From IMG/VR virus record IMGVR_UViG_3300031933_000117, positions 2,688 through 66,687 of that record: a stretch of 64,000 nt of DNA; one strand, written 5' to 3'. The notes beneath the pieces are model-generated. The model did not search any database, had not been told where the DNA came from, and worked only from the letters and a program-made list of their open reading frames with translations. This DNA comes from a virus. The position numbers and the translations under genes are program-made. The first letter of the stretch is position 1, and the number at the start of each line of letters is the position of its first letter. Positions 27,270 through 52,548 of the stretch are shown here, one piece after another.

Positions 27270-27731
27270 ATGACTTGGCAGTACAACAAAGAGGACTTTA
27301 CCGATGTACCCAAAGGTATGGAAGGATTTGTTTATGTCATTACAAATCTAACTAATGATAAAAAATATATTGGAAAGAAGAACTTCTGGACTCGTCAAAA
27401 AGATCGTAAGACTGGTCGTAGAAAAACTAAAGAAAGTGATTGGCAATCTTACTTTGGCTCCTGTGATGAACTTAAGGACGATATAAAGTTATTGGGTCAA
27501 GATAAGTTCTTTAGAGAAATCTTGTATTTGTGCCCTCATAAGAAATCTATGAGTTATTATGAGACTATGGAACAATTCAAGCGTGATGTAATCTTAAGAG
27601 AAGATTATTACAACACAAATGTTGAAGGTAAGTATTTTTCCAACGAAATGGATCGAATTTACAATTTGGTAGAACGTTCTGCGATAAATAATGATGTCTC
27701 TAGGAACGGCAATTCTCTACGGGCAGATTAG
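27270..27731 (+). CDS. GIY-YIG-family nuclease (Seg-like)
   Basis: Likely start MTWQY; GFVYVITN...KKYIGKK, YFGS, FFREIL, YYE. Confidence 0.7.
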   Translation: MTWQYNKEDFTDVPKGMEGFVYVITNLTNDKKYIGKKNFWTRQKDRKTGRRKTKESDWQSYFGSCDELKDDIKLLGQDKFFREILYLCPHKKSMSYYETMEQFKRDVILREDYYNTNVEGKYFSNEMDRIYNLVERSAINNDVSRNGNSLRAD

Positions 27732-27794
27732 GTGCTTTCGGGCACCTTTTCTATTATGAACTCTTATAAATAATAATGCCGTTCATAGAGAATA

Positions 27795-28481
27795 ATGATG
27801 ACTTCACAAAGTCCAAGAATATACTTGTATAAAATTACTTTTGAAGAAGTTCCATATTACTATTATGGAGTTCACAAAGAAAAAATATTTGATAAGTATT
27901 ATATGGGTTCTCCGGTATCACATAAATGGTGTTGGAAACTTTATACTCCAAAGAAACAAATATTAGAAATCTTTCCTTATACTGATGAAGGATGGATTGA
28001 AGCGCAAGAAGTTGAAAGTAGAATAATAAAAATATTTTATCAAACGGATAAATGGTGTCTTAATGAAAATTGTGGTGGGAAAATATCGTTGAATTCTCTC
28101 AAAAAAGCAGGAATATATGTATATAAATCTAAAATAGGTTTTTTTAAATTCTCAAAAGAAGAAAGAGTAAAAATTAATAAATTAGCAGGCAAAAAAGGAG
28201 GAAAAAAATCAAAAGAACTTGGTGTTGGTATTTTTGGACTTACTAAAGAAGAAAGAAGAGAACACGGAAGTAAAATGGGAAAACTTAGTTATGAATTTGG
28301 TACTGGTATTCATGGAAGAACAGAACAAAAAGTGGTAGAAGATTGTAAAAAAGGAGCAAAAAAAACCAATTCTCAAAAATGGATGTGTGAAGAAACTGGT
28401 TATATAACAACATCAGGACCACTTACATTATACCAAAAGACAAGAGGTATAGATACTTCCAAAAGAGTTAGAATACTATAA
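27795..28481 (+). CDS. Free-standing GIY-YIG-type homing endonuclease
   Basis: IYLYKITF...YYYGVH...YMGS, KQILE, CLNEN; repeated GIFG/GKKG DNA-binding-like segments; TATAAATA upstream. Confidence 0.75.
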   Translation: MMTSQSPRIYLYKITFEEVPYYYYGVHKEKIFDKYYMGSPVSHKWCWKLYTPKKQILEIFPYTDEGWIEAQEVESRIIKIFYQTDKWCLNENCGGKISLNSLKKAGIYVYKSKIGFFKFSKEERVKINKLAGKKGGKKSKELGVGIFGLTKEERREHGSKMGKLSYEFGTGIHGRTEQKVVEDCKKGAKKTNSQKWMCEETGYITTSGPLTLYQKTRGIDTSKRVRIL

Positions 28482-43873: not shown

Positions 43874-45250
43874 CTAAAACTTAAATCCCTCGAATGATTT
43901 TTTTGGTTTGGTTTCTTCGTAATTATACTCTGGTTCCTGCCCGCTGTCAAGTATGTCTTTTTGTGCTGACTGTTCTACATCATAAAGTCTCATTTTAGCG
44001 CGGTCAATACCAACAACAAAACGCTTGAAGATTGATTTATCACCGTAACGATTTTTTAACTGCTTTATCATAATTTGATTCAGTCCTTCTAATTCTTCGG
44101 TGCTGATAAGAGCAACAAGAAAGTCGGCAGTCGCAGGAAGTCCAAAAGATTCTGAAGTATCCGTGATTTCAACATCTGATGAACTAAAACCGCTACGTGT
44201 CGTCTGTGTGGCGCTGAAAATTGGAACATCGTGCTCCACAGCGAGACCACGAAGTTCTTCGGCAATTGATTTAATTATGCTATAAGAATTGATATTACTT
44301 CCGGCACGAAATCTAGATGACGCACAGATATTAATATAATCAATAAAAATAACATCAGGTCTGAAAGATTTCTTAAGAGAAAGTTCATTTAGAAGTGCCT
44401 TAAAGTGCCCGGAGTGTGCGGAGGCAGTTGGATACTCCTTGATAATTAAGGTTCCTTTTGTTTTTTCTGCGAGTTTAGATGCCTTATTAGTGAAAGTGGA
44501 TTTTGGTAAATCTTCCAATTGATTAATAGCAACGTTTAGCATATTAGCGTCCATTCTTTTGGCAATTTCTTCTTCTGCCATCTCCATAGTAATGTAGAGA
44601 ACATTTTTCGATTGAAGCAAAAAAGAAGATGCCATATGACACATCGCCAGAGTTTTGCCAACGTTTGTTCCGGCAAGAAAAATATTTAGAGTTTTATTTG
44701 GAACACCACCATTCGTAATTTTATTGAAGAAATCTAAATCAAACTCAAGACGATTTTCTTTCTTATGATAATACTCATAGCGTTCTTCATAATTAAGAAG
44801 ATAATCGTGACCGATATTATTATCAAAAGATACCGCTAGAGCATCAGAAAGAATACTGGGAATAGCATCTCTACCTTTTTTCTCATTATTTCCATCGGCA
44901 ATATGAATCGATTCCATAAGTGCCAGATAAATTGCCCGGTCACGACACCACCTCTCGGTAGTATCCAGTATCCACTGACTATCTACCGGACTATCATTAA
45001 GTTTAGAAAGTAGTTCTACAATTTCCTTACTTTCGGTTTCAGTTAAATCCTTACGATTATCAATCTCAATATTGAGTGCTTCTATCGTAATAGAAGACCC
45101 ATACTTAACAATAAACTTAACAATTTCCTCAAAAACTATTTTTTCTACTCTTTGTTCGTAATATTCCGGTTGAATAAATGGAATAACTTTTCTGGCATAG
45201 TCTTCATTAAATATTAAGTTTTTAAGAATTGTAATCTCAAGTCGTTCCAT
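43874..45250 (-). CDS. Replicative helicase (T4 gp41-like)
   Basis: AGTNVGKT Walker A, IFIDYINIC, ATQTTR, SESFGLPATAD, KNRYGD; uninterrupted. Confidence 0.93.
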   Translation of the reverse strand: MERLEITILKNLIFNEDYARKVIPFIQPEYYEQRVEKIVFEEIVKFIVKYGSSITIEALNIEIDNRKDLTETESKEIVELLSKLNDSPVDSQWILDTTERWCRDRAIYLALMESIHIADGNNEKKGRDAIPSILSDALAVSFDNNIGHDYLLNYEERYEYYHKKENRLEFDLDFFNKITNGGVPNKTLNIFLAGTNVGKTLAMCHMASSFLLQSKNVLYITMEMAEEEIAKRMDANMLNVAINQLEDLPKSTFTNKASKLAEKTKGTLIIKEYPTASAHSGHFKALLNELSLKKSFRPDVIFIDYINICASSRFRAGSNINSYSIIKSIAEELRGLAVEHDVPIFSATQTTRSGFSSSDVEITDTSESFGLPATADFLVALISTEELEGLNQIMIKQLKNRYGDKSIFKRFVVGIDRAKMRLYDVEQSAQKDILDSGQEPEYNYEETKPKKSFEGFKF

Positions 45251-45258
45251 TATTTTAT

Positions 45259-45804
45259 TCAAAGATTGCTTTTATGATGCGGAACGTCAAATACAAAAGT
45301 AATTCTAACGTTGTCGCCAATATTAACTGCCTTATGAGGTAGTTTATTATTAAACCAGAAGAGTGTTCCGGGTTCGACAATTATGGTTTCGTCCCCAACA
45401 GTATATTCGTATTTGCCCTGAATGGAAAGATGATATCTGTCTTTTGTAAGATAATAAGTTCCTTCGTCAATATGAGAACCCACAATTTCACCAACTGGAA
45501 GCGCCAGAAACGCACAACGTCGAAGTTTCTTAAAATACTTACTTAAGTAATTAAGAATCTCTGTATGTTTTTCATATGCCGGGGTTTTAATACATATTTC
45601 AGTATTTCCAACATATTGACCTTCAGTCTCAACTCCACCCACAATAAGTTGTAGAACATCCACAGTAACTGTATATTTTGTGGGGTCTAATTGTTCCACA
45701 TCTTTAATATTTTTTTGAGAACCCCAATCTTCTGGATGTTCCTTAAGTTGTTCTAATATTTTAGAGACATTTACATTAGTTTTTATAATGCGAATATTTT
45801 TCAT
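45259..45804 (-). CDS. Aspartyl/asparaginyl beta-hydroxylase-like 2OG-Fe(II) oxygenase
   Basis: SHIDEG, RYHL, FWFNNKLPHKAVN...RITFVFD. Confidence 0.75.
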   Translation of the reverse strand: MKNIRIIKTNVNVSKILEQLKEHPEDWGSQKNIKDVEQLDPTKYTVTVDVLQLIVGGVETEGQYVGNTEICIKTPAYEKHTEILNYLSKYFKKLRRCAFLALPVGEIVGSHIDEGTYYLTKDRYHLSIQGKYEYTVGDETIIVEPGTLFWFNNKLPHKAVNIGDNVRITFVFDVPHHKSNL

Positions 45805-46274
45805 GCTCCATAACTGAAATTACCCTTGGCGATTACATCAAGTTTTTCCATTACTTCTGGCGGAAAATATTTTTCAATATTTTTCAGGATGTCTTTGGCA
45901 TAAAGTTTTTTACCATCAATTTCATATCGTCCGGCAACATTCTTCCACATTCCACCCAATTCACCAAGTTCAAGAAGACCATAATAACGATCAAGACCTC
46001 GTTCATCATAGAACAACCGAATTTGAACCTCTTGATTTTCTTTACTTAAACGAGACTTTTGAGTTTTAGCACGAATGATATTTCCAATTATTTCTGTTCC
46101 ATCTTTTTCTTTTGATTTGGAAAGATAGATGATTGTAGAGGCAGCATATTGTAATCCACTATTATGAGTTACTACACCATTTTCTAAAATATAATTTTCA
46201 TATTTTTCCACGGAGATATCATAAACATCTCCAACGCCAACACTTGTGATGGATTTTATTTTTTTAGTTTTCAT
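45801..46274 (-). CDS. uvsX: UvsX C-terminal part fused to split-intein C fragment (38 aa)
   Basis: MKTKKIKSI...VYDISVEKYENYILENGVVTHN|SGLQYAASTIIYL...KSRL; intein F/G blocks ending HN, Ser+1. Confidence 0.92.
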   Translation of the reverse strand: MKTKKIKSITSVGVGDVYDISVEKYENYILENGVVTHNSGLQYAASTIIYLSKSKEKDGTEIIGNIIRAKTQKSRLSKENQEVQIRLFYDERGLDRYYGLLELGELGGMWKNVAGRYEIDGKKLYAKDILKNIEKYFPPEVMEKLDVIAKGNFSYGA

Positions 46275-46933
46275 AATCTTTCTATCCTTATAATATTGTA
46301 GTTTTTTAATAAATGCTGAAATTGAGATTTAACTAACTTACACCCAAGATGTCCGGATTTCCCCAAATATATCCCCAAATACTTATACTGACTAAAAATA
46401 ATAAATGTACCATCATCGAAATAAACTTTTATGGGATTACTTTTCTTTATTGATAGTATTTTTTTAGTTTCTTCTGTGTGTTTTTTTCCGTAAAATGAAT
46501 TATTATTTAATAAGTTATATTCCTTATTTTTTATACTAATTAATTTTCTAGTTTCTTCAGTATGAGTTTTTCCATAAAATGAATTATTTTTTCCCATACT
46601 ATGAAGTCTATTATTTTCTATTATAGATTGATATATTTTTGAGTTTATTTTAATACAACTTCTACCAGAGTTTTTTCCCATAAATCTAACTAAAGCGCAA
46701 TACATTTTTTTCACATATTGAGACTCTACAGATTTAGAAAGTAACAGATGCGCTATAAAATGTTCTCTGGGGGTTAATAAGACTTTATTAGATGGGTTAT
46801 TACTACCACCCATACATTTTGGAACTATATGGTGAGAGTCATATATTCCACCATCTCCTTTACTCCTATTCATTTGTTTTCTTGTATTTACAAGATTCAT
46901 ATAAGTTTTAGTGTATTTGTTACAATTAAACAC
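46271..46933 (-). CDS. Free-standing HNH homing endonuclease (MobE-like, NUMOD3 repeats) splitting uvsX
   Basis: HHIVPKCMGGSN..SNKVLLTPREHFIAH; two SFYGK.HTEET repeats; late promoter upstream. Confidence 0.88.
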   Translation of the reverse strand: MFNCNKYTKTYMNLVNTRKQMNRSKGDGGIYDSHHIVPKCMGGSNNPSNKVLLTPREHFIAHLLLSKSVESQYVKKMYCALVRFMGKNSGRSCIKINSKIYQSIIENNRLHSMGKNNSFYGKTHTEETRKLISIKNKEYNLLNNNSFYGKKHTEETKKILSIKKSNPIKVYFDDGTFIIFSQYKYLGIYLGKSGHLGCKLVKSQFQHLLKNYNIIRIERL

Positions 46934-46997
46934 AACATAAAATACGAACCTAATACTATTTATAATATTCGTATTTTACACCGATACCGATTATAAG

Positions 46998-47918
46998 TCA
47001 AATACAACAAACTTCATTATCAACAACTAAATCTTTTGCCTCAATCCACATACCATCAATAAAAAATTTATGTTCTGGCGTACAGGTAACTTTATATCCA
47101 TCATCAAATTCTATCTGTAAAAGTTCTTTGTCCTTAAAATTGTGAGTTTCTAAAACTTTCATAAACTCACCTTCTTTTGTATATACAAAATCATTTTCAG
47201 TTATATCTTCGATATTTTTATACCCACCACGAGTAAAAATTTTAGTTCCGGGAGATAAGCACCCCCCGCTCATTTGTTTTCCACCATAAAGAGACATACT
47301 ATCATAGGTGTGATTTGTCACCAGCATAGGAATCTTTGCTTGACCCAGTTTGAGAGTAAGCATACGGAAAGCACCCTTAATCAATTGTGCCTTCGTCATA
47401 TCACGAGTATCCTTCTCCGCAAGAGCATCATTAATCTCTTTATTTGTAGAAAGCATTCCCAAGGAATCCAACACAAAGATACAAGGTTTTCTTTCTTCCT
47501 CCTTTTTCTTAAGGTAAATATCAACTGCCTTAAGTGTCTTGGTGCGAAACTCTTCAACCGTGACTACATTAACGACCACCAAACGATTTATATCAACTCC
47601 ACGAGACTCTAATAGTGATTTAGTAATTGCGGATTCAGTATCAAAGTATAGACAATACCCATCAGGATGAGTATCAAGAAAGTTCTTAACAACAGCGAGA
47701 CTGAAGAAAGTTTTTCCCGTAGAAGTTTCACCCGCGATAGCAGTAATCTTATTGCCAGATACACCACCAAATATACTACCGGATACAAGAGCATTAAAAA
47801 TGTATGAACCCGTATCCACATAAGTTTCAGTTTCATCAATCTCTGATGCGAGTTGCGTATATTCTCCCCCAATCTCCTTTACAATATCTTTAAGAAAACT
47901 TAATCCAGAATCAGTCAT
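46998..47918 (-). CDS. uvsX: UvsX N-terminal part fused to split-intein N fragment (87 aa, 47261-47001)
   Basis: Likely start MTDSG; AGETSTGKT, FDTES, DSLG, TNHTY..MSGG|CLSPGT...CTPEHKF; intein A and B blocks. Confidence 0.92.
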   Translation of the reverse strand: MTDSGLSFLKDIVKEIGGEYTQLASEIDETETYVDTGSYIFNALVSGSIFGGVSGNKITAIAGETSTGKTFFSLAVVKNFLDTHPDGYCLYFDTESAITKSLLESRGVDINRLVVVNVVTVEEFRTKTLKAVDIYLKKKEEERKPCIFVLDSLGMLSTNKEINDALAEKDTRDMTKAQLIKGAFRMLTLKLGQAKIPMLVTNHTYDSMSLYGGKQMSGGCLSPGTKIFTRGGYKNIEDITENDFVYTKEGEFMKVLETHNFKDKELLQIEFDDGYKVTCTPEHKFFIDGMWIEAKDLVVDNEVCCI

Positions 47919-47919
47919 T

Positions 47920-48057
47920 TCATTCCTCCTTTTGTTTTTGTTTGTTGTCATAATTCATCTTATATCGCCAAAGTTTTTGATACAGGGCAACATCTCCACC
48001 TAATCTCATAGCACTAACAATCGTATCAAGTTCTTTTTCGTTAATTGGCAAGTTCAT
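47920..48057 (-). CDS. 45-aa hypothetical protein
   Basis: Read by hand: MNLPINEKELDTIVSAMRLGGDVALYQKLW...; overlaps gp43B stop. Confidence 0.55.
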   Translation of the reverse strand: MNLPINEKELDTIVSAMRLGGDVALYQKLWRYKMNYDNKQKQKEE

Positions 48058-49145
48058 TAGATAAAAAATGAATCAAGGTTTGCTGTATGTTCTGTTTTCC
48101 ATCCAATCGAATCTAAAATAGACTTAAGTGGGTCCAAGAAGCTCTTCTCAAATTGTAGTTCATAATCAATATATTTGTCAAGTCCCAATTCTTTAGGAAA
48201 ATCAGAAATAAAGGAAATGACATTCTCTCGTATGATATTCGGTTTTTTTAAGAAAATATACTTCACTTTCTCTCCATTATTAATAAGTGAATATTTATGA
48301 GTAAGTTTTTTCTCCTTTATATAATGATTAAACAAAAGAGAACCACGAATATGAATTGGAGTTCCTTTTGAGTATATTTCATTACGAGAACTATACTTCC
48401 TTATATCTGACGCTGTTCTGGGAAAGGCAATTTGCTCCGGAGAAAAAGTTCTAAACTCTTGCCGACATTCATTAATAAACTTGATTACCTCATCTTCGGT
48501 TCCACTCATCATAATCTTTAACCCATCCTTAATCATTTTACGACAAGGTGCTGGAGTTGAGGATTTGACCGCCTCAATTCCCATCATCTTGAGTTTTGGT
48601 TCGGCATAACGAACACCTTCACTATCCCAGACATTTAGAATATAACGCTTCTTCGCAGTCCAGATTCCTCGGTCGGCAATATTCTCCCGCTTCATAATCA
48701 TCTTCTGGTCGTAGGCATTCATATACTCCGCTAGTTCCTCATAGCAACCCTGAATATATTTTTCAATTTCGGTCTTACAGATTTTATCAAGAAACGAAAC
48801 AACAGATTCGGTAGTTTTTTTCTTTTCCTTATATACGGCATTTACCAGAGGTCCCATATTCAGGTAAATGGAGTCGGTGTCGGACGCAATCACATAATCA
48901 TAATCCTCAGTTTTAAGTATTTTATTGAAATATCTATTCATCTTATTTTCAATCCAACGAATCGCAACCTGCCCCGAAAGAGTAATCGCTTCGGCATTCT
49001 CAAGTTTATAATACCTGAAGTATTGATTTCCACAAGCACCGTAGGCAGAATTGAGAGATATTTTTTTAGACATCTGAATATTATTACATCTTGAAATCTC
49101 CTTTATAGTTTTTTCCCTCAAAGATTTTAATTGAGAATCGGACAT
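48057..49145 (-). CDS. DNA polymerase gp43, C-terminal subunit (gp43B)
   Basis: Likely start MSDSQL; KISLNSAYG (region III), YVIASDTDSIY (motif C), KKRY, KMMGIEAVKSSTP, C-terminal clamp-binding LDSFF. Confidence 0.9.
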   Translation of the reverse strand: MSDSQLKSLREKTIKEISRCNNIQMSKKISLNSAYGACGNQYFRYYKLENAEAITLSGQVAIRWIENKMNRYFNKILKTEDYDYVIASDTDSIYLNMGPLVNAVYKEKKKTTESVVSFLDKICKTEIEKYIQGCYEELAEYMNAYDQKMIMKRENIADRGIWTAKKRYILNVWDSEGVRYAEPKLKMMGIEAVKSSTPAPCRKMIKDGLKIMMSGTEDEVIKFINECRQEFRTFSPEQIAFPRTASDIRKYSSRNEIYSKGTPIHIRGSLLFNHYIKEKKLTHKYSLINNGEKVKYIFLKKPNIIRENVISFISDFPKELGLDKYIDYELQFEKSFLDPLKSILDSIGWKTEHTANLDSFFI

Positions 49146-49146
49146 T

Positions 49147-49851
49147 TCAGATAAGTTCACATTTCCATCCCTTTGCTTTACCTTTTGTAATAACTTTACC
49201 ATTTTTACTACTACTAACCCAAAGAGTAGAATGAGGTAAATTATTTTCTTTACACCAGTCTTCTAATCTATTGGTAATAATTTCTTCACCAATTGGAGAC
49301 GTTATTTTAAATGTTGAAGATAAACAATCTCTCATATGATCTTTATTTTCTTTCCAGTGGTTAGTAGACCAATCTCTCATAAATTCAGAATGTTCTGGTC
49401 TTTTTTTACCAGTATTAACTTCAAGTGCTTTTTTTAAGTTTTCTTTTGCTATACTAACATATTTTGGATTTCCAGTTTTAAGTTTTTTTTGAGATTCTGA
49501 AACTTTATTTCTAACTTCTAATGATTTTTTCATAGGATTATTATCTCCCTTACATAAACCATTAGCATTTACATAGTTCCAACCACCTTTTCCACCAACA
49601 TTCATATTATAGCATTTATCTTTTTTATAATGCTCCTCAACTATTTTTTCTTCTTTTAAATACATTTCATTTTCCTCATTACAAAATTCAACTATTTCTC
49701 TATAAAAATTTTCTTTACCATGTTTTTCTATTGCCTTTTTTAAAGCAACACCAGAACCTAAATATTCATCATTTATGTTTTTAGTGGAGTGTGCTCCATA
49801 ATAGTACTTACCATTTTTCATATTTGTTGTTTTGTATATGAAATAATACAT
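49147..49851 (-). CDS. Free-standing GIY-YIG (Seg-like) homing endonuclease splitting gp43
   Basis: FIYKTTN..NGKYYYGAH...YLGSG, ENFYREI, YNM..GG; late promoter upstream. Confidence 0.88.
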   Translation of the reverse strand: MYYFIYKTTNMKNGKYYYGAHSTKNINDEYLGSGVALKKAIEKHGKENFYREIVEFCNEENEMYLKEEKIVEEHYKKDKCYNMNVGGKGGWNYVNANGLCKGDNNPMKKSLEVRNKVSESQKKLKTGNPKYVSIAKENLKKALEVNTGKKRPEHSEFMRDWSTNHWKENKDHMRDCLSSTFKITSPIGEEIITNRLEDWCKENNLPHSTLWVSSSKNGKVITKGKAKGWKCELI

Positions 49852-49879
49852 CTAAAATACCTGTTTCCTACAGCACTAT

Positions 49880-51349
49880 TTATAATAGTTTCCTTTTTTT
49901 CATTTCCGATTCAATTTGCTCCAATTCTTTTTTTTCCTTAATCATCAGGTCCTTATACACAACGCGGTCGTTATACATTTTCTCCATGAGTTCGGGAAGG
50001 AATCCCCTCACATCTTTACGATACATCGCACCATTAGGACATACCGCATAGTCCTTATACTTCTCAAAAGTTAGTTCTTGGTTGAGAATCTTATCTACAG
50101 TTACGGTGGGGTGCCTTTTATCAACAAGAGTTTCTGGACTCACGTTAAATTCCATAATTAAATGCGGATAAAGTGAATTCAAATCGAAATTAACGACCCA
50201 ATCATAAACTCCGGGTACGGGTTCTTTTACATAGGCACCAGCATACTTTTCACTTTTTTCTGATTTAGTTTTAGGAGGAATTACAATATTCCTATCCTTA
50301 AGATAATTGTAAATGATAGTATCCCACATAGAAACTTGAGAGAATACATCATTATAATTAACCTTGGCATCATATGCCATCGTAAGTGCCAGTTCAATTA
50401 GTTTCATCTTGTCTTCCAATCGGTCAACAAGTTCTACGTCCTTTATGTTATACTCACAAAATTTCTGCCAACCTTTGGTATAAAAATCCTTAAAGGTATC
50501 AAACTCGGAGTGGTCCAGTTTTTTCTGCCCGAGTTCCACTTCGGCAATATAATCCAGACGATATGATTCCTGTGCCTTATAGGTAAACTTTTTATAAAGA
50601 TCCAAATAATCTAATTGTGATATGCCACCAATATTATAATAGATTTGATTTCTTCCCAAAACAAATGTCTCCTTTTCGGATACTATTCCCCACGGAGAAA
50701 TACGCTTCATTAACTTTTCGCCAAGTATTTTTTCGAGACGACGAACCAAATAAGGAATATCGTAAAACATACTATTCCATCCAGTAATAACCTCTGGTGT
50801 ATTTTCCTCAATCATCCACCAGCAAATAAAATCATTTAACAGATCATACTCGGAAGAAAATTGCCGGTAAGTAACATTTTTTTGATTATTTTGATAAGGT
50901 CCAAGTCCCCAAGTTCGGATTTGTTTTGTATTGTAATCCTGTAAAGTAATCAAAAGAACCTCTTCTGCTGCGGATTCTACATCAGGAAATCCATTCTCCG
51001 ATGCGACCTCAATATCAATAGTGGTTAGTTTAATTTTACCAATATCAAACTTAATTTCAGTTTCTGGATATTTGTCAGAAATGTATTGATAAATGTACCG
51101 GTCATTCCCATAGATTTTAAAGTTTTCTACATTATCATACTTTTTAAGAAACTCTCTACATTCTTTTACCGAACCCGGTTGAATAGATTCTACATATTCT
51201 CCCTGAAGTGTTTTATATTTGGTTGGTTTTTTAGACGAAACAAAAAGAGTTGGAGAAAACTTTTCACGAGTCATAAAGTGGTTTCCGTCTTTATAACCTC
51301 TAACTAAAAAGTAATCTCCAATCATAAGTACATTTGTATAAAAATTCAT
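49880..51349 (-). CDS. DNA polymerase gp43, N-terminal subunit (gp43A: exonuclease + motif A)
   Basis: DIEV, TGWN..FYDIPY, YNIKDV exonuclease motifs; FDLNSLYP; stops after helical tail in fingers domain. Confidence 0.9.
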   Translation of the reverse strand: MNFYTNVLMIGDYFLVRGYKDGNHFMTREKFSPTLFVSSKKPTKYKTLQGEYVESIQPGSVKECREFLKKYDNVENFKIYGNDRYIYQYISDKYPETEIKFDIGKIKLTTIDIEVASENGFPDVESAAEEVLLITLQDYNTKQIRTWGLGPYQNNQKNVTYRQFSSEYDLLNDFICWWMIEENTPEVITGWNSMFYDIPYLVRRLEKILGEKLMKRISPWGIVSEKETFVLGRNQIYYNIGGISQLDYLDLYKKFTYKAQESYRLDYIAEVELGQKKLDHSEFDTFKDFYTKGWQKFCEYNIKDVELVDRLEDKMKLIELALTMAYDAKVNYNDVFSQVSMWDTIIYNYLKDRNIVIPPKTKSEKSEKYAGAYVKEPVPGVYDWVVNFDLNSLYPHLIMEFNVSPETLVDKRHPTVTVDKILNQELTFEKYKDYAVCPNGAMYRKDVRGFLPELMEKMYNDRVVYKDLMIKEKKELEQIESEMKKRKLL

Positions 51350-51603
51350 CAGGTAGTTAGTTCAAGATACTTTTCAGTAATTTCTTTTTTTGGATCAACA
51401 ATCGTTAAAATACTATCAGAATGAATCAACATTTCATTTTGATCTGTAACATCAGGCCAAGGAGTTAGATTCCCTTCCTTATCAATTTGATGTGGATTGA
51501 TAAGTTTACAATCTGGTTCACCAAGTTGAGATCCCAATTCAGCAATTTCGGTAATTAATACCGTATTAATCTTCAAAAGAAGACACTTCACATTCCGTTC
51601 CAT
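51349..51603 (-). CDS. Conserved-type hypothetical protein
   Basis: ORF in replication operon; similar short beta-rich type to neighbour. Confidence 0.6.
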   Translation of the reverse strand: MERNVKCLLLKINTVLITEIAELGSQLGEPDCKLINPHQIDKEGNLTPWPDVTDQNEMLIHSDSILTIVDPKKEITEKYLELTT

Positions 51604-51901
51604 TTACTTTTTCCTCGTACATTTTTTTAATATCGTTGACTGGTTCAACAATTGTTACAATCCAATCCGGTCGAACTGGAATCTCACTATCACTCGTAAA
51701 CATAATCCAAGAAGAGAATGTTACACTAACGGTGCCGTCTTCAGGTTCTGCTGGTTCTTCGGTTAAGAAAATTGAATTGCTGATTTGCATTTTATGCGGA
51801 TTTTTAAATAAGTATCCACATACCTTCTCATCAGAAATTAATTCCTTAATATCAGCGATTACGGATTCTCCAGATTTTAATAGAGCAATTTTTACAGACA
51901 T
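51566..51901 (-). CDS. Conserved-type hypothetical protein
   Basis: Likely start MSVKIALLKSGESVIAD. Confidence 0.6.
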   Translation of the reverse strand: MSVKIALLKSGESVIADIKELISDEKVCGYLFKNPHKMQISNSIFLTEEPAEPEDGTVSVTFSSWIMFTSDSEIPVRPDWIVTIVEPVNDIKKMYEEKVNGTECEVSSFED

Positions 51902-52006
51902 TTTTAGTTTTCCTCTCAATTCATTATAGCACAAAAAAAGGGGAGGTGCAACTGGTTTTTGCCAGTCACCTCCCTGTAGCAACGATATTTGGGTGGACCT
52001 CTGTAT

Positions 52007-52441
52007 TTAGATGTAATCTTTCCTCTTATGATGATCCGGGACAACTCTTCCGAGAGTAATTGATAAGAGTCCGTCCTCAAAATCAACAGATCTAACTTCT
52101 GTATCATCAGAAAGCGTCCAAGATCTGGTGAAGGATCTTTGAGCCAATCCTTTATGGAGGTAATTAGATTCTGTCTCTTTATCTTCTTTTTGACCTTCAA
52201 CGAAAAGTTTTCCATCTTGAGTATAAACAAAGACTTCTTTTTTTCTAAATCCGGCAAGAGCCAATTCGAGTCTTGATTCTAAATTATTGATTTGAACCAA
52301 GTTGTATGGAGGATAATTTGAAGTTGTTTCATGAAGATTAAACAAACGATCAAAATATTCATCCAGTCCAATACTGTTTCTTGTGATCTTATCCATTAGA
52401 TTGGGAAGATCCGCAGCAGTATACCTTGTAAGATTAGTCAT
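52007..52441 (-). CDS. Small heat shock protein Hsp20
   Basis: YPPYNL, ELALAGF, HKGLAQRSFTRSW, FEDGLL. Confidence 0.92.
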   Translation of the reverse strand: MTNLTRYTAADLPNLMDKITRNSIGLDEYFDRLFNLHETTSNYPPYNLVQINNLESRLELALAGFRKKEVFVYTQDGKLFVEGQKEDKETESNYLHKGLAQRSFTRSWTLSDDTEVRSVDFEDGLLSITLGRVVPDHHKRKDYI

Positions 52442-52548
52442 TTTAGTATCTCCTTAAAAAGCGAGGTTTGATTGTGTGGATCCTTTCGGCATCCGTATAT
52501 AATTATAAGACTTTCATAAAAAAAGCGGGATAGTATTTCCCGCACCTT

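Follow-up and report, generated by a model that had tools for sequence, protein, structure and literature searches.

The question raised by the locus described here is how an essential phage replicase tolerates having its gene cut in two. The locus lies in a stretch of 64,000 nucleotides (positions 2,688 to 66,687 of the IMG/VR virus record IMGVR_UViG_3300031933_000117), which was analysed as a whole and is referred to below as the window. In this DNA from an uncultured T4-like cyanophage, gene 43 is laid out as two separate genes for one DNA polymerase, and a GIY-YIG endonuclease gene occupies the gap between them. We regard it as likely, with a probability of roughly 0.8, that this is a bicistronic gene 43 split at the fingertip of the polymerase, that its two products, gp43A and gp43B, assemble noncovalently, and that the endonuclease gene is selfish cargo in the intercistronic gap. 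By this mechanism, gp43A and gp43B would be translated separately off one transcript and then associate noncovalently to form a single family B polymerase with a composite active site, to which gp43A would contribute the motif A aspartate and gp43B the motif C aspartates. The nuclease would be cargo in a gap that already existed; it probably cleaves gene 43 alleles that lack the nuclease, and repair of the cut allele would then copy in the nuclease gene along with the fingers module around it, between the conserved codons of motifs A and B. The sequences themselves show the anatomy of the locus, its lack of an intron or intein, its conservation and mosaicism, and other cargo at the same site; the assembly and activity of the chains, the late expression of the nuclease gene, and cleavage and homing by its product are what we infer. 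The layout is real and probably works as a two-chain enzyme.

All three genes lie on the minus strand. Gene 43A (49880-51349; 489 amino acids in the list of open reading frames, ORFs) encodes the N-terminal domain, the 3'-5' exonuclease, the beginning of the palm, which includes motif A, and the first of the fingers helices, and its product ends ...KKELEQIESEMKKRKLL before the stop codon. Gene 43B (48057-49160; 367 amino acids from a conserved GTG, or 362 if translation begins at ATG 49145) encodes the second fingers helix with motif B, the remaining palm with motif C, the KKRY motif and the thumb. The motifs of T4 gp43-type family B polymerases are complete across the two ORFs (Exo I-III, DxxSLYPS, KxxxNSxYG and DTDS), with the exonuclease residues D112/E114, N192/D197 and Y300/D304 and motif A (D389 LNSLYP) on gp43A, and motif B (K33, N37, S38, Y40 and G41), motif C (D94, T95 and D96) and KKRY (170-173) on gp43B. 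Given this division of the catalytic motifs, neither chain could be a polymerase by itself. In Pfam, gp43A matches DNA_pol_B_exo1 (3e-20) and positions 19-147 of the DNA_pol_B profile (1e-18), gp43B matches positions 145-452 of the latter profile, and both halves score above the cut-off. The nearest GenBank phages, S-SRM01, S-SKS1 and P-SSM2, each have one uninterrupted gp43 of about 830 amino acids; the halves encoded in the window align end to end with the unsplit gp43 of S-SRM01 and P-SSM2, and an unsplit relative matches RB69 gp43 at 3e-138.

Alignment to RB69 gp43 places the break in the fingertip loop between the two long fingers helices, i.e., between motifs A and B. Residues 374-480 of gp43A align to RB69 396-500, its C-terminus being near RB69 509, and residues 27-100 of gp43B align to RB69 554-627, its first residue being near 528; the fingers of RB69 gp43 we take to span roughly residues 469-572. 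A break in the fingers between these motifs, and a distance of 28 nucleotides between gp43A and the nuclease gene, had both been proposed in an initial annotation made from the DNA letters, and both are borne out, the spacer lying at 49852-49879 (minus strand). The same annotation had drawn attention to charged helices ending and beginning the two halves; these appear to be no special add-ons, as residues 3-26 of gp43B align in HMMER to the native long fingertip (residues 527-550) of an 898-amino-acid gp43-type chain, within a longer alignment of gp43B 3-100 to residues 527-624. Because the gp43B head aligns to a native T4-type fingertip, the split form resembles a long tip of the T4 kind that has been severed in its loop; it is about 23 residues longer at the break than unsplit cyanophage gp43, the tip of which is shorter by that amount.

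The layout is neither a chance event nor an assembly artefact, because the exact junction between the end of the nuclease gene and the start of gp43B recurs on 18 IMG/VR contigs. This recurrence bears on the possibility that the gene is simply broken (a pseudogene or an assembly chimera) in a phage that is defective or has another polymerase. Although a metagenomic origin and a contig that is 34% complete give this idea some room, it is highly improbable, given not only the 18 contigs, but also the invariance of all catalytic motifs in alignments of 9-16 diverged sequences, ratios of nonsynonymous to synonymous polymorphism (pN/pS) well below 1, and the same break in GenBank records of Synechococcus phage ACG-2014f. 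Over nine loci, pN/pS is 0.45 in the last 24 codons of gp43A and 0.22 in codons 6-24 of gp43B. A search for gp43B-sized proteins returned thousands of matches, and 47 of the best 120 start exactly at this break; the 47 lie on contigs of up to 232 kb and show four N-terminal types.

What lies in the gap differs between relatives. In the ACG-2014f records, two small unknown ORFs (52 and 71 amino acids) separate two coding sequences annotated as gp43 DNA polymerase. In L016 (related loci are labelled L followed by a number) the gap holds a 224-amino-acid ORF with an HNH-like N-terminus that it shares with the nuclease associated with uvsX in the window, and in L014 and L015 gp43A (489 amino acids) and gp43B (388 amino acids) adjoin directly, the stop codon of the first overlapping the start codon of the second (TAATG). 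Fingertip-split gene 43 without the nuclease was observed at L014:3032-5667, in L015 and at L022:1085-4101; in this nuclease-less type the gp43B head is about 21 amino acids longer and carries a conserved GYLIGG. The gp43A tails are homologous across the nuclease, empty, HNH-like and small-ORF types ([EK]L..IE.E[ML][KR].R...stop), which points to one ancestral break that has since been filled by varying cargo. Since the same break occurs with the nuclease, with an HNH-like gene, with small ORFs or with nothing, the split is best read as a stable two-gene state and the nuclease as its replaceable cargo. The statement of the initial annotation that the polymerase is split by the GIY-YIG gene stands in so far as that gene lies in the gap, but it gives the nuclease too large a part in the break, which, like the tails, is also found without an insert and with an HNH-like gene or small ORFs.

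These loci are also the main difficulty for the view that insertion of the GIY-YIG gene itself made the split, the gp43A tail and gp43B head being new sequences that now act as assembly domains, as described for mobE in Aeh1 nrdA. The roughly 23 residues by which the split form exceeds unsplit cyanophage gp43 would agree with this origin, as would the fact that the tails travel with the nuclease in an exchanged module (see below) and that Aeh1 NrdA is active only with its tails (PMC3045599); but the same tails are also present where the gap holds no nuclease, an unrelated HNH-like gene or small ORFs, and the gp43B head has its counterpart, by alignment, in the long fingertip native to T4-type gp43, which makes an insertion-made split unlikely.

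The empty alleles have, moreover, nothing to splice out, so that the enzyme would have to work as two chains. This bears on whether the halves are rejoined by RNA splicing, protein splicing or ribosomal bypass. Elements of the required kinds are not foreign to such phages: group I introns (in psbA) and a split intein (in uvsX) occur elsewhere in the same window, and T4 gene 60 is a phage example of gap bypass. At gene 43, however, a permissive Rfam scan (E up to 1) of 45000-52500 on both strands gave no group I intron or other match, and Pfam gave no match to the Hint/intein family in gp43A or gp43B, although the same scan matched Hint-type sequences in the uvsX halves of the window. The non-coding sequence at the break amounts to only 28 nucleotides without a stable fold, the ORF in the gap is intact and subject to purifying selection (234 codons without indels in 9 orthologues, pN/pS 0.26), and the empty alleles keep a stop and a restart in their TAATG. 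The nuclease gene is thus embedded in neither an intron nor an intein by Pfam, Rfam and spacer fold, in agreement with the initial annotation, which had described a two-polypeptide polymerase lacking both, and rejoining of the halves is very improbable. In four metatranscriptome RNA-library runs compared with 48057-51349, no contig joint skips the nuclease gene, which is weak evidence: contigs X16 (349 nucleotides, 91% alike, running from the nuclease gene into gp43B) and X15 (713 nucleotides, covering the nuclease gene) come from relatives and possibly from carried-over DNA, and show neither transcription nor absence of splicing. The runs containing related sequence are labelled mostly lake, freshwater or drinking water, and some oddly, and no habitat conclusion is drawn from them. 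The uvsX locus of the window (45801-47951, minus strand) consists, by Pfam, of two genes with Hint-type halves and an HNH/NUMOD3 gene between them.

That the two chains could form one polymerase is consistent with a model of the gp43A and gp43B complex built with alignments for both chains, a check that the initial annotation had proposed. The interface score ipSAE of this model is 0.86, compared with 0.00 for the best control, and the mark used for this score is attained by 58 of 80 complexes of solved structure, as against 2 of 110 mismatched pairs. At least 96% of contacts are common to the three runs, and the pLDDT of the partner is 88. The modelled interface comprises about 380 contacts, involving residues 369-405 (palm strands of motif A) and 431-488 as well as portions of the exonuclease domain on the gp43A side, and residues 3-72, 88-106 (motif C) and 146-175 on the gp43B side. 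The most confident contacts are between palm and palm (A379-388 with B98-102 and B156-167, with A385-388 against B98-102 and B156-162 as the most confident pairs), and the two fingers helices pack along their full length (A431-488 with B3-72). Contacts between the tails (A472-488 with B3-19) make up a small part of the interface; they would suit the idea of a hairpin at the tip, and with it an insertion-made split, but the concentration of the most confident contacts in the palm rather than in the tails speaks against that origin. The proposal of the initial annotation that a helical hairpin at the tip holds the halves together was not fully upheld, the interface consisting in the model mainly of the palm and the full fingers helices, with the tip hairpin at their far end, so that the hairpin is unlikely to be the main link.

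Translation of gp43B most likely begins slightly upstream of the position first assigned to it. An ATG is indeed present 1 nucleotide past the nuclease TGA, at 49145, where the initial annotation had placed the restart; it opens MSDSQLKSLREK...KKISLNSAYG in a frame running to 48057. However, the corresponding position is TTG, TTA or CTG in ten related IMG/VR loci, whereas a GTG five codons upstream is invariant in these ten loci, where it follows AAGGGG by 7 nucleotides; some homologues in the database have ATG in its place (MNLSELSD...). Because this GTG is invariant while ATG 49145 is not kept, GTG 49160 is the likelier start (VNLSEMSDSQL..., 367 amino acids), in which case gene 43B would overlap the last 14 nucleotides of the nuclease gene.

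A T4-type late-promoter-like octamer, TATAAATA, is located at 49877-49884 (minus strand), where it overlaps the gp43A stop codon 25 nucleotides before the nuclease ATG. This octamer occurs 16 times in the window, where 6.8 +/- 2.6 copies are expected, with 14 of the 16 on the coding strand, and the copy at the gp43A stop is present in the window and, of 9 related loci extending this far, in 8, L011 having TATAGATA instead. By analogy with T4, its placement suggests that the nuclease gene is transcribed late from this predicted promoter. As for the polymerase genes, a hairpin such as those of phage 25 or T4 I-TevI was sought in the 28-nucleotide spacer and no stable one was found (fold z-score 0.03), nor was there any terminator-like site among the three genes on the coding (minus) strand; since both are lacking, the locus is compatible with a single early transcript of both polymerase genes that would read through the nuclease gene. 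Another copy of TATAAATA lies at 46957-46964, 24 nucleotides before the uvsX-associated nuclease gene, paralleling the arrangement at the GIY-YIG gene.

The gene in the gap (49147-49851, minus strand; 234 amino acids) encodes a predicted free-standing Seg-type GIY-YIG homing endonuclease; its product opens MYYFIYKTTNMKNGKYYYG, reads FIYKTTN...GKYYYG in its N-terminus, and its ORF stops with TGA. It matches PHROG 314 (homing endonuclease) at 7e-39 and is 36% identical over 174 residues to seg43(25) of Aeromonas phage 25 (E 1e-27). A tblastn search of 50,697 phage records for this nuclease in gene 43 of a cultured phage gave only matches of at most 35% identity, in other contexts, and in blastn no phage record covers 80% of the region. 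Within the window, weak tblastn matches to the N-terminal GIY-YIG part of the nuclease lie at 27327-27632 and 27822-28115 on the plus strand, whereas most genes are on the other (identity near 30%; E values of 3e-5 and 4e-6), with a copy of TATAAATA nearby at 27765-27772 (plus strand); this region (27327-28115) may hold another nuclease gene, duplicated or broken.

The relation of the locus to its closest unsplit relative points to movement of the break and its cargo as a unit. Outside 49103-50126 (minus strand), the gene of the window is 93-100% identical in DNA to that of L020, which is not split at the fingertip; inside this interval, which is bounded by blastn segment ends, extends from the end of motif A up to where motif B begins and takes in the nuclease gene and the two tails, identity falls to 48-61% in a sliding window, and the nuclease gene is absent from L020. 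An apparent extra split of L020 into 225 and 603 amino acids was rejected, as it coincides with a run of N in the scaffold (L020:1930-1990) and is no real break. Because high identity drops sharply only in this interval, a module of about 1 kb between motifs A and B must have been exchanged, and the codons of the two motifs, which are conserved more strongly than any other stretch, would lend themselves to anchoring recombination. Mosaicism extends to the nuclease gene: its 5' half (codons about 1-120) is nearest to L008 (91-96%), and its 3' half is closest to L003, at 97-99% over about 180 nucleotides (49370-49549) and at 90-91% through the 3' end, which suggests shuffling of the catalytic half and the presumed DNA-binding half. 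L004 is 93% identical in amino acids to the window in gp43A and only 69% in gp43B, and in a tree built from the body of gp43B the split forms are scattered among unsplit ones, well-supported branches forcing at least 10 state changes for the type found in the window. An exchanged module, a mosaic nuclease and a patchy distribution are the footprints that would be expected of homing with co-conversion of the flanks; free-standing nucleases are known to cut hundreds to thousands of base pairs from their own gene (PMC2988022).

The arrangement is of a known kind that was first described in Aeromonas phages and is found here in a cyanophage, as Aeromonas salmonicida phage 25 shares both the fingertip site and a homologous nuclease, and further precedents exist. 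The phage 25 record holds a 43A of 498 amino acids, a homing endonuclease of 267 amino acids and a 43B with a group IA2 intron, an arrangement of 43A, IC-UTS, seg43(25) and intron-bearing 43B attributed to Petrov, Ratnayaka and Karam (2010) in PMC2988022 and PMC2993671. By alignment its gp43A ends at RB69 residue 511-512 approximately and its gp43B begins at about 515, i.e., in the same fingertip loop as in the window (about 512/515 as against about 509/528, the tip being shorter here). The two loci agree in gene order and strand and in having the end of the nuclease gene no more than a few nucleotides away from where 43B starts, and the free-standing Seg-type GIY-YIG nucleases between the halves belong to the same PHROG 314. 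According to the review PMC2988022, the two halves from phage 25 co-purify and are active as a polymerase, and the nuclease of this phage may have entered an already split gene, phage 44RR being split without it. Unlike the window, in which no stable hairpin was found, phage 25 has an intercistronic hairpin (GACGGGGTTAT...ATAACCCCG); its tails are ordinary RB69-like fingertip, whereas the cyanophage gp43A tail is a distinct conserved motif, and the lineage of the window is Kyanoviridae-like rather than Straboviridae.

Other systems resemble the locus in part. Fingertip splits in phages 133, 44RR, 31, 25 and 65 are credited to Petrov et al. in PMC3061061, which also describes intercistronic distances from 2 bp to 3 kb in split-fingertip gp43 and the fingers domain as a hotspot for insertions. 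Phages 44RR, 31, 65 and 133 share with the window two cistrons broken in the fingertip, and the empty cyanophage locus L014, with its TAATG, is of the 2-bp type; unlike these phages of Aeromonas and Acinetobacter, the cyanophages are polymorphic for the split among very close alleles, with direct evidence of module exchange. In Aeh1 nrdA/mobE (PMC3045599) a free-standing homing endonuclease likewise lies in an essential gene whose two polypeptides reassemble and bear extra tails, but the nuclease is of the HNH type, the enzyme is a ribonucleotide reductase, and its tails are needed for assembly of a dimer of heterodimers, whereas the cyanophage tails look like native fingertip sequence. Pfu PolB, also a family B polymerase, is fully active when cut near the fingertip, whether produced from two cistrons or reconstituted from separately purified fragments, in which latter form it behaves like the wild type (PMC3061061), although this is a laboratory construct of an archaeal enzyme with a short tip and no mobile element. 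Finally, fractured genes with split inteins (PMC2677866; uvsX in the window) show the same succession of host half, nuclease gene and host half in aquatic phage DNA, but their Hint halves ligate the products by trans-splicing, and gp43A and gp43B carry none.

Several points weigh against a two-chain polymerase with a homing nuclease as its cargo. The complex model shows compatibility of the halves and likeness to solved single chains rather than proof of binding, and a passing score was to be expected because single-chain structures of RB69 and T4 gp43 have been solved. The record is a 70.7-kb fragment (34% complete), and a second polymerase could lie elsewhere in the genome. The match of the nuclease to TIGR01453 (9e-8) scores 32 bits against a cut-off of 56, that to Pfam SegE_GIY-YIG (8e-4), seen in all 9 orthologues, 20 bits against a cut-off of 25, and an AlphaFold2 model of the nuclease from the 9 orthologues has a mean pLDDT of 51, too poor to use. 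As to mobility, ordinary recombination could leave the same footprints, the module may have been gained by the window or lost by L020, and the window has no group I intron in 43B, so that the self-protection route of phage 25 is unavailable to it.

The locus extends split-fingertip gp43, known from phages of Aeromonas and Acinetobacter, to aquatic cyanophages, in which it is common and polymorphic among near-identical alleles. These alleles provide a natural series of five states (unsplit, split and empty, and split with a GIY-YIG gene, with an HNH-like gene or with small ORFs), which allows one to ask how an essential replicase tolerates cutting and by what means a free-standing nuclease spreads when no intron shields its own genome. 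For annotation and for marker surveys based on gene 43, half-length cyanophage gp43 ORFs are not necessarily fragments or errors. Beyond the window, we tentatively put forward, at slightly less than even odds, that the fingertip break in cyanomyoviruses is a long-lived landing pad, and that a fingers module (stop, promoter, cargo and restart) moves by recombination in the motif A and motif B stretches, converting unsplit and split genes in both directions while the cargo (GIY-YIG, HNH-like, small ORFs or nothing) turns over. If so, gene 43 would, together with two further break points, be a multi-site hotspot of fragmentation, and variants with a long split tip might differ from those with a short fused tip in nucleotide selectivity.

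The first of these two break points was observed at L017:2603-5847, on a related 72-kb contig. There, a gp43A of 427 amino acids ends just past motif A (...SPETLIEKHQLNNRIAELEKML before the stop codon) and is followed by TATAAATA, a 188-amino-acid HNH gene and a gp43B of 448 amino acids starting MWKDVRKMSREEIVEELEALKQVREL; at this break the two ends bear additional, helical-looking tails that unsplit gp43 lacks, and the 448-amino-acid form of gp43B is found in at least 12 database proteins. The other, at L018:2847-6258 and also in L019, lies in the exonuclease domain ahead of Exo III, where a gp43A of 325 amino acids and a gp43B of 585 amino acids flank a 195-amino-acid ORF on the opposite strand that is related to the uvsX-associated nuclease of the window (55% identity over 38 amino acids); the tails added at this break are about 35 and about 50 amino acids long.

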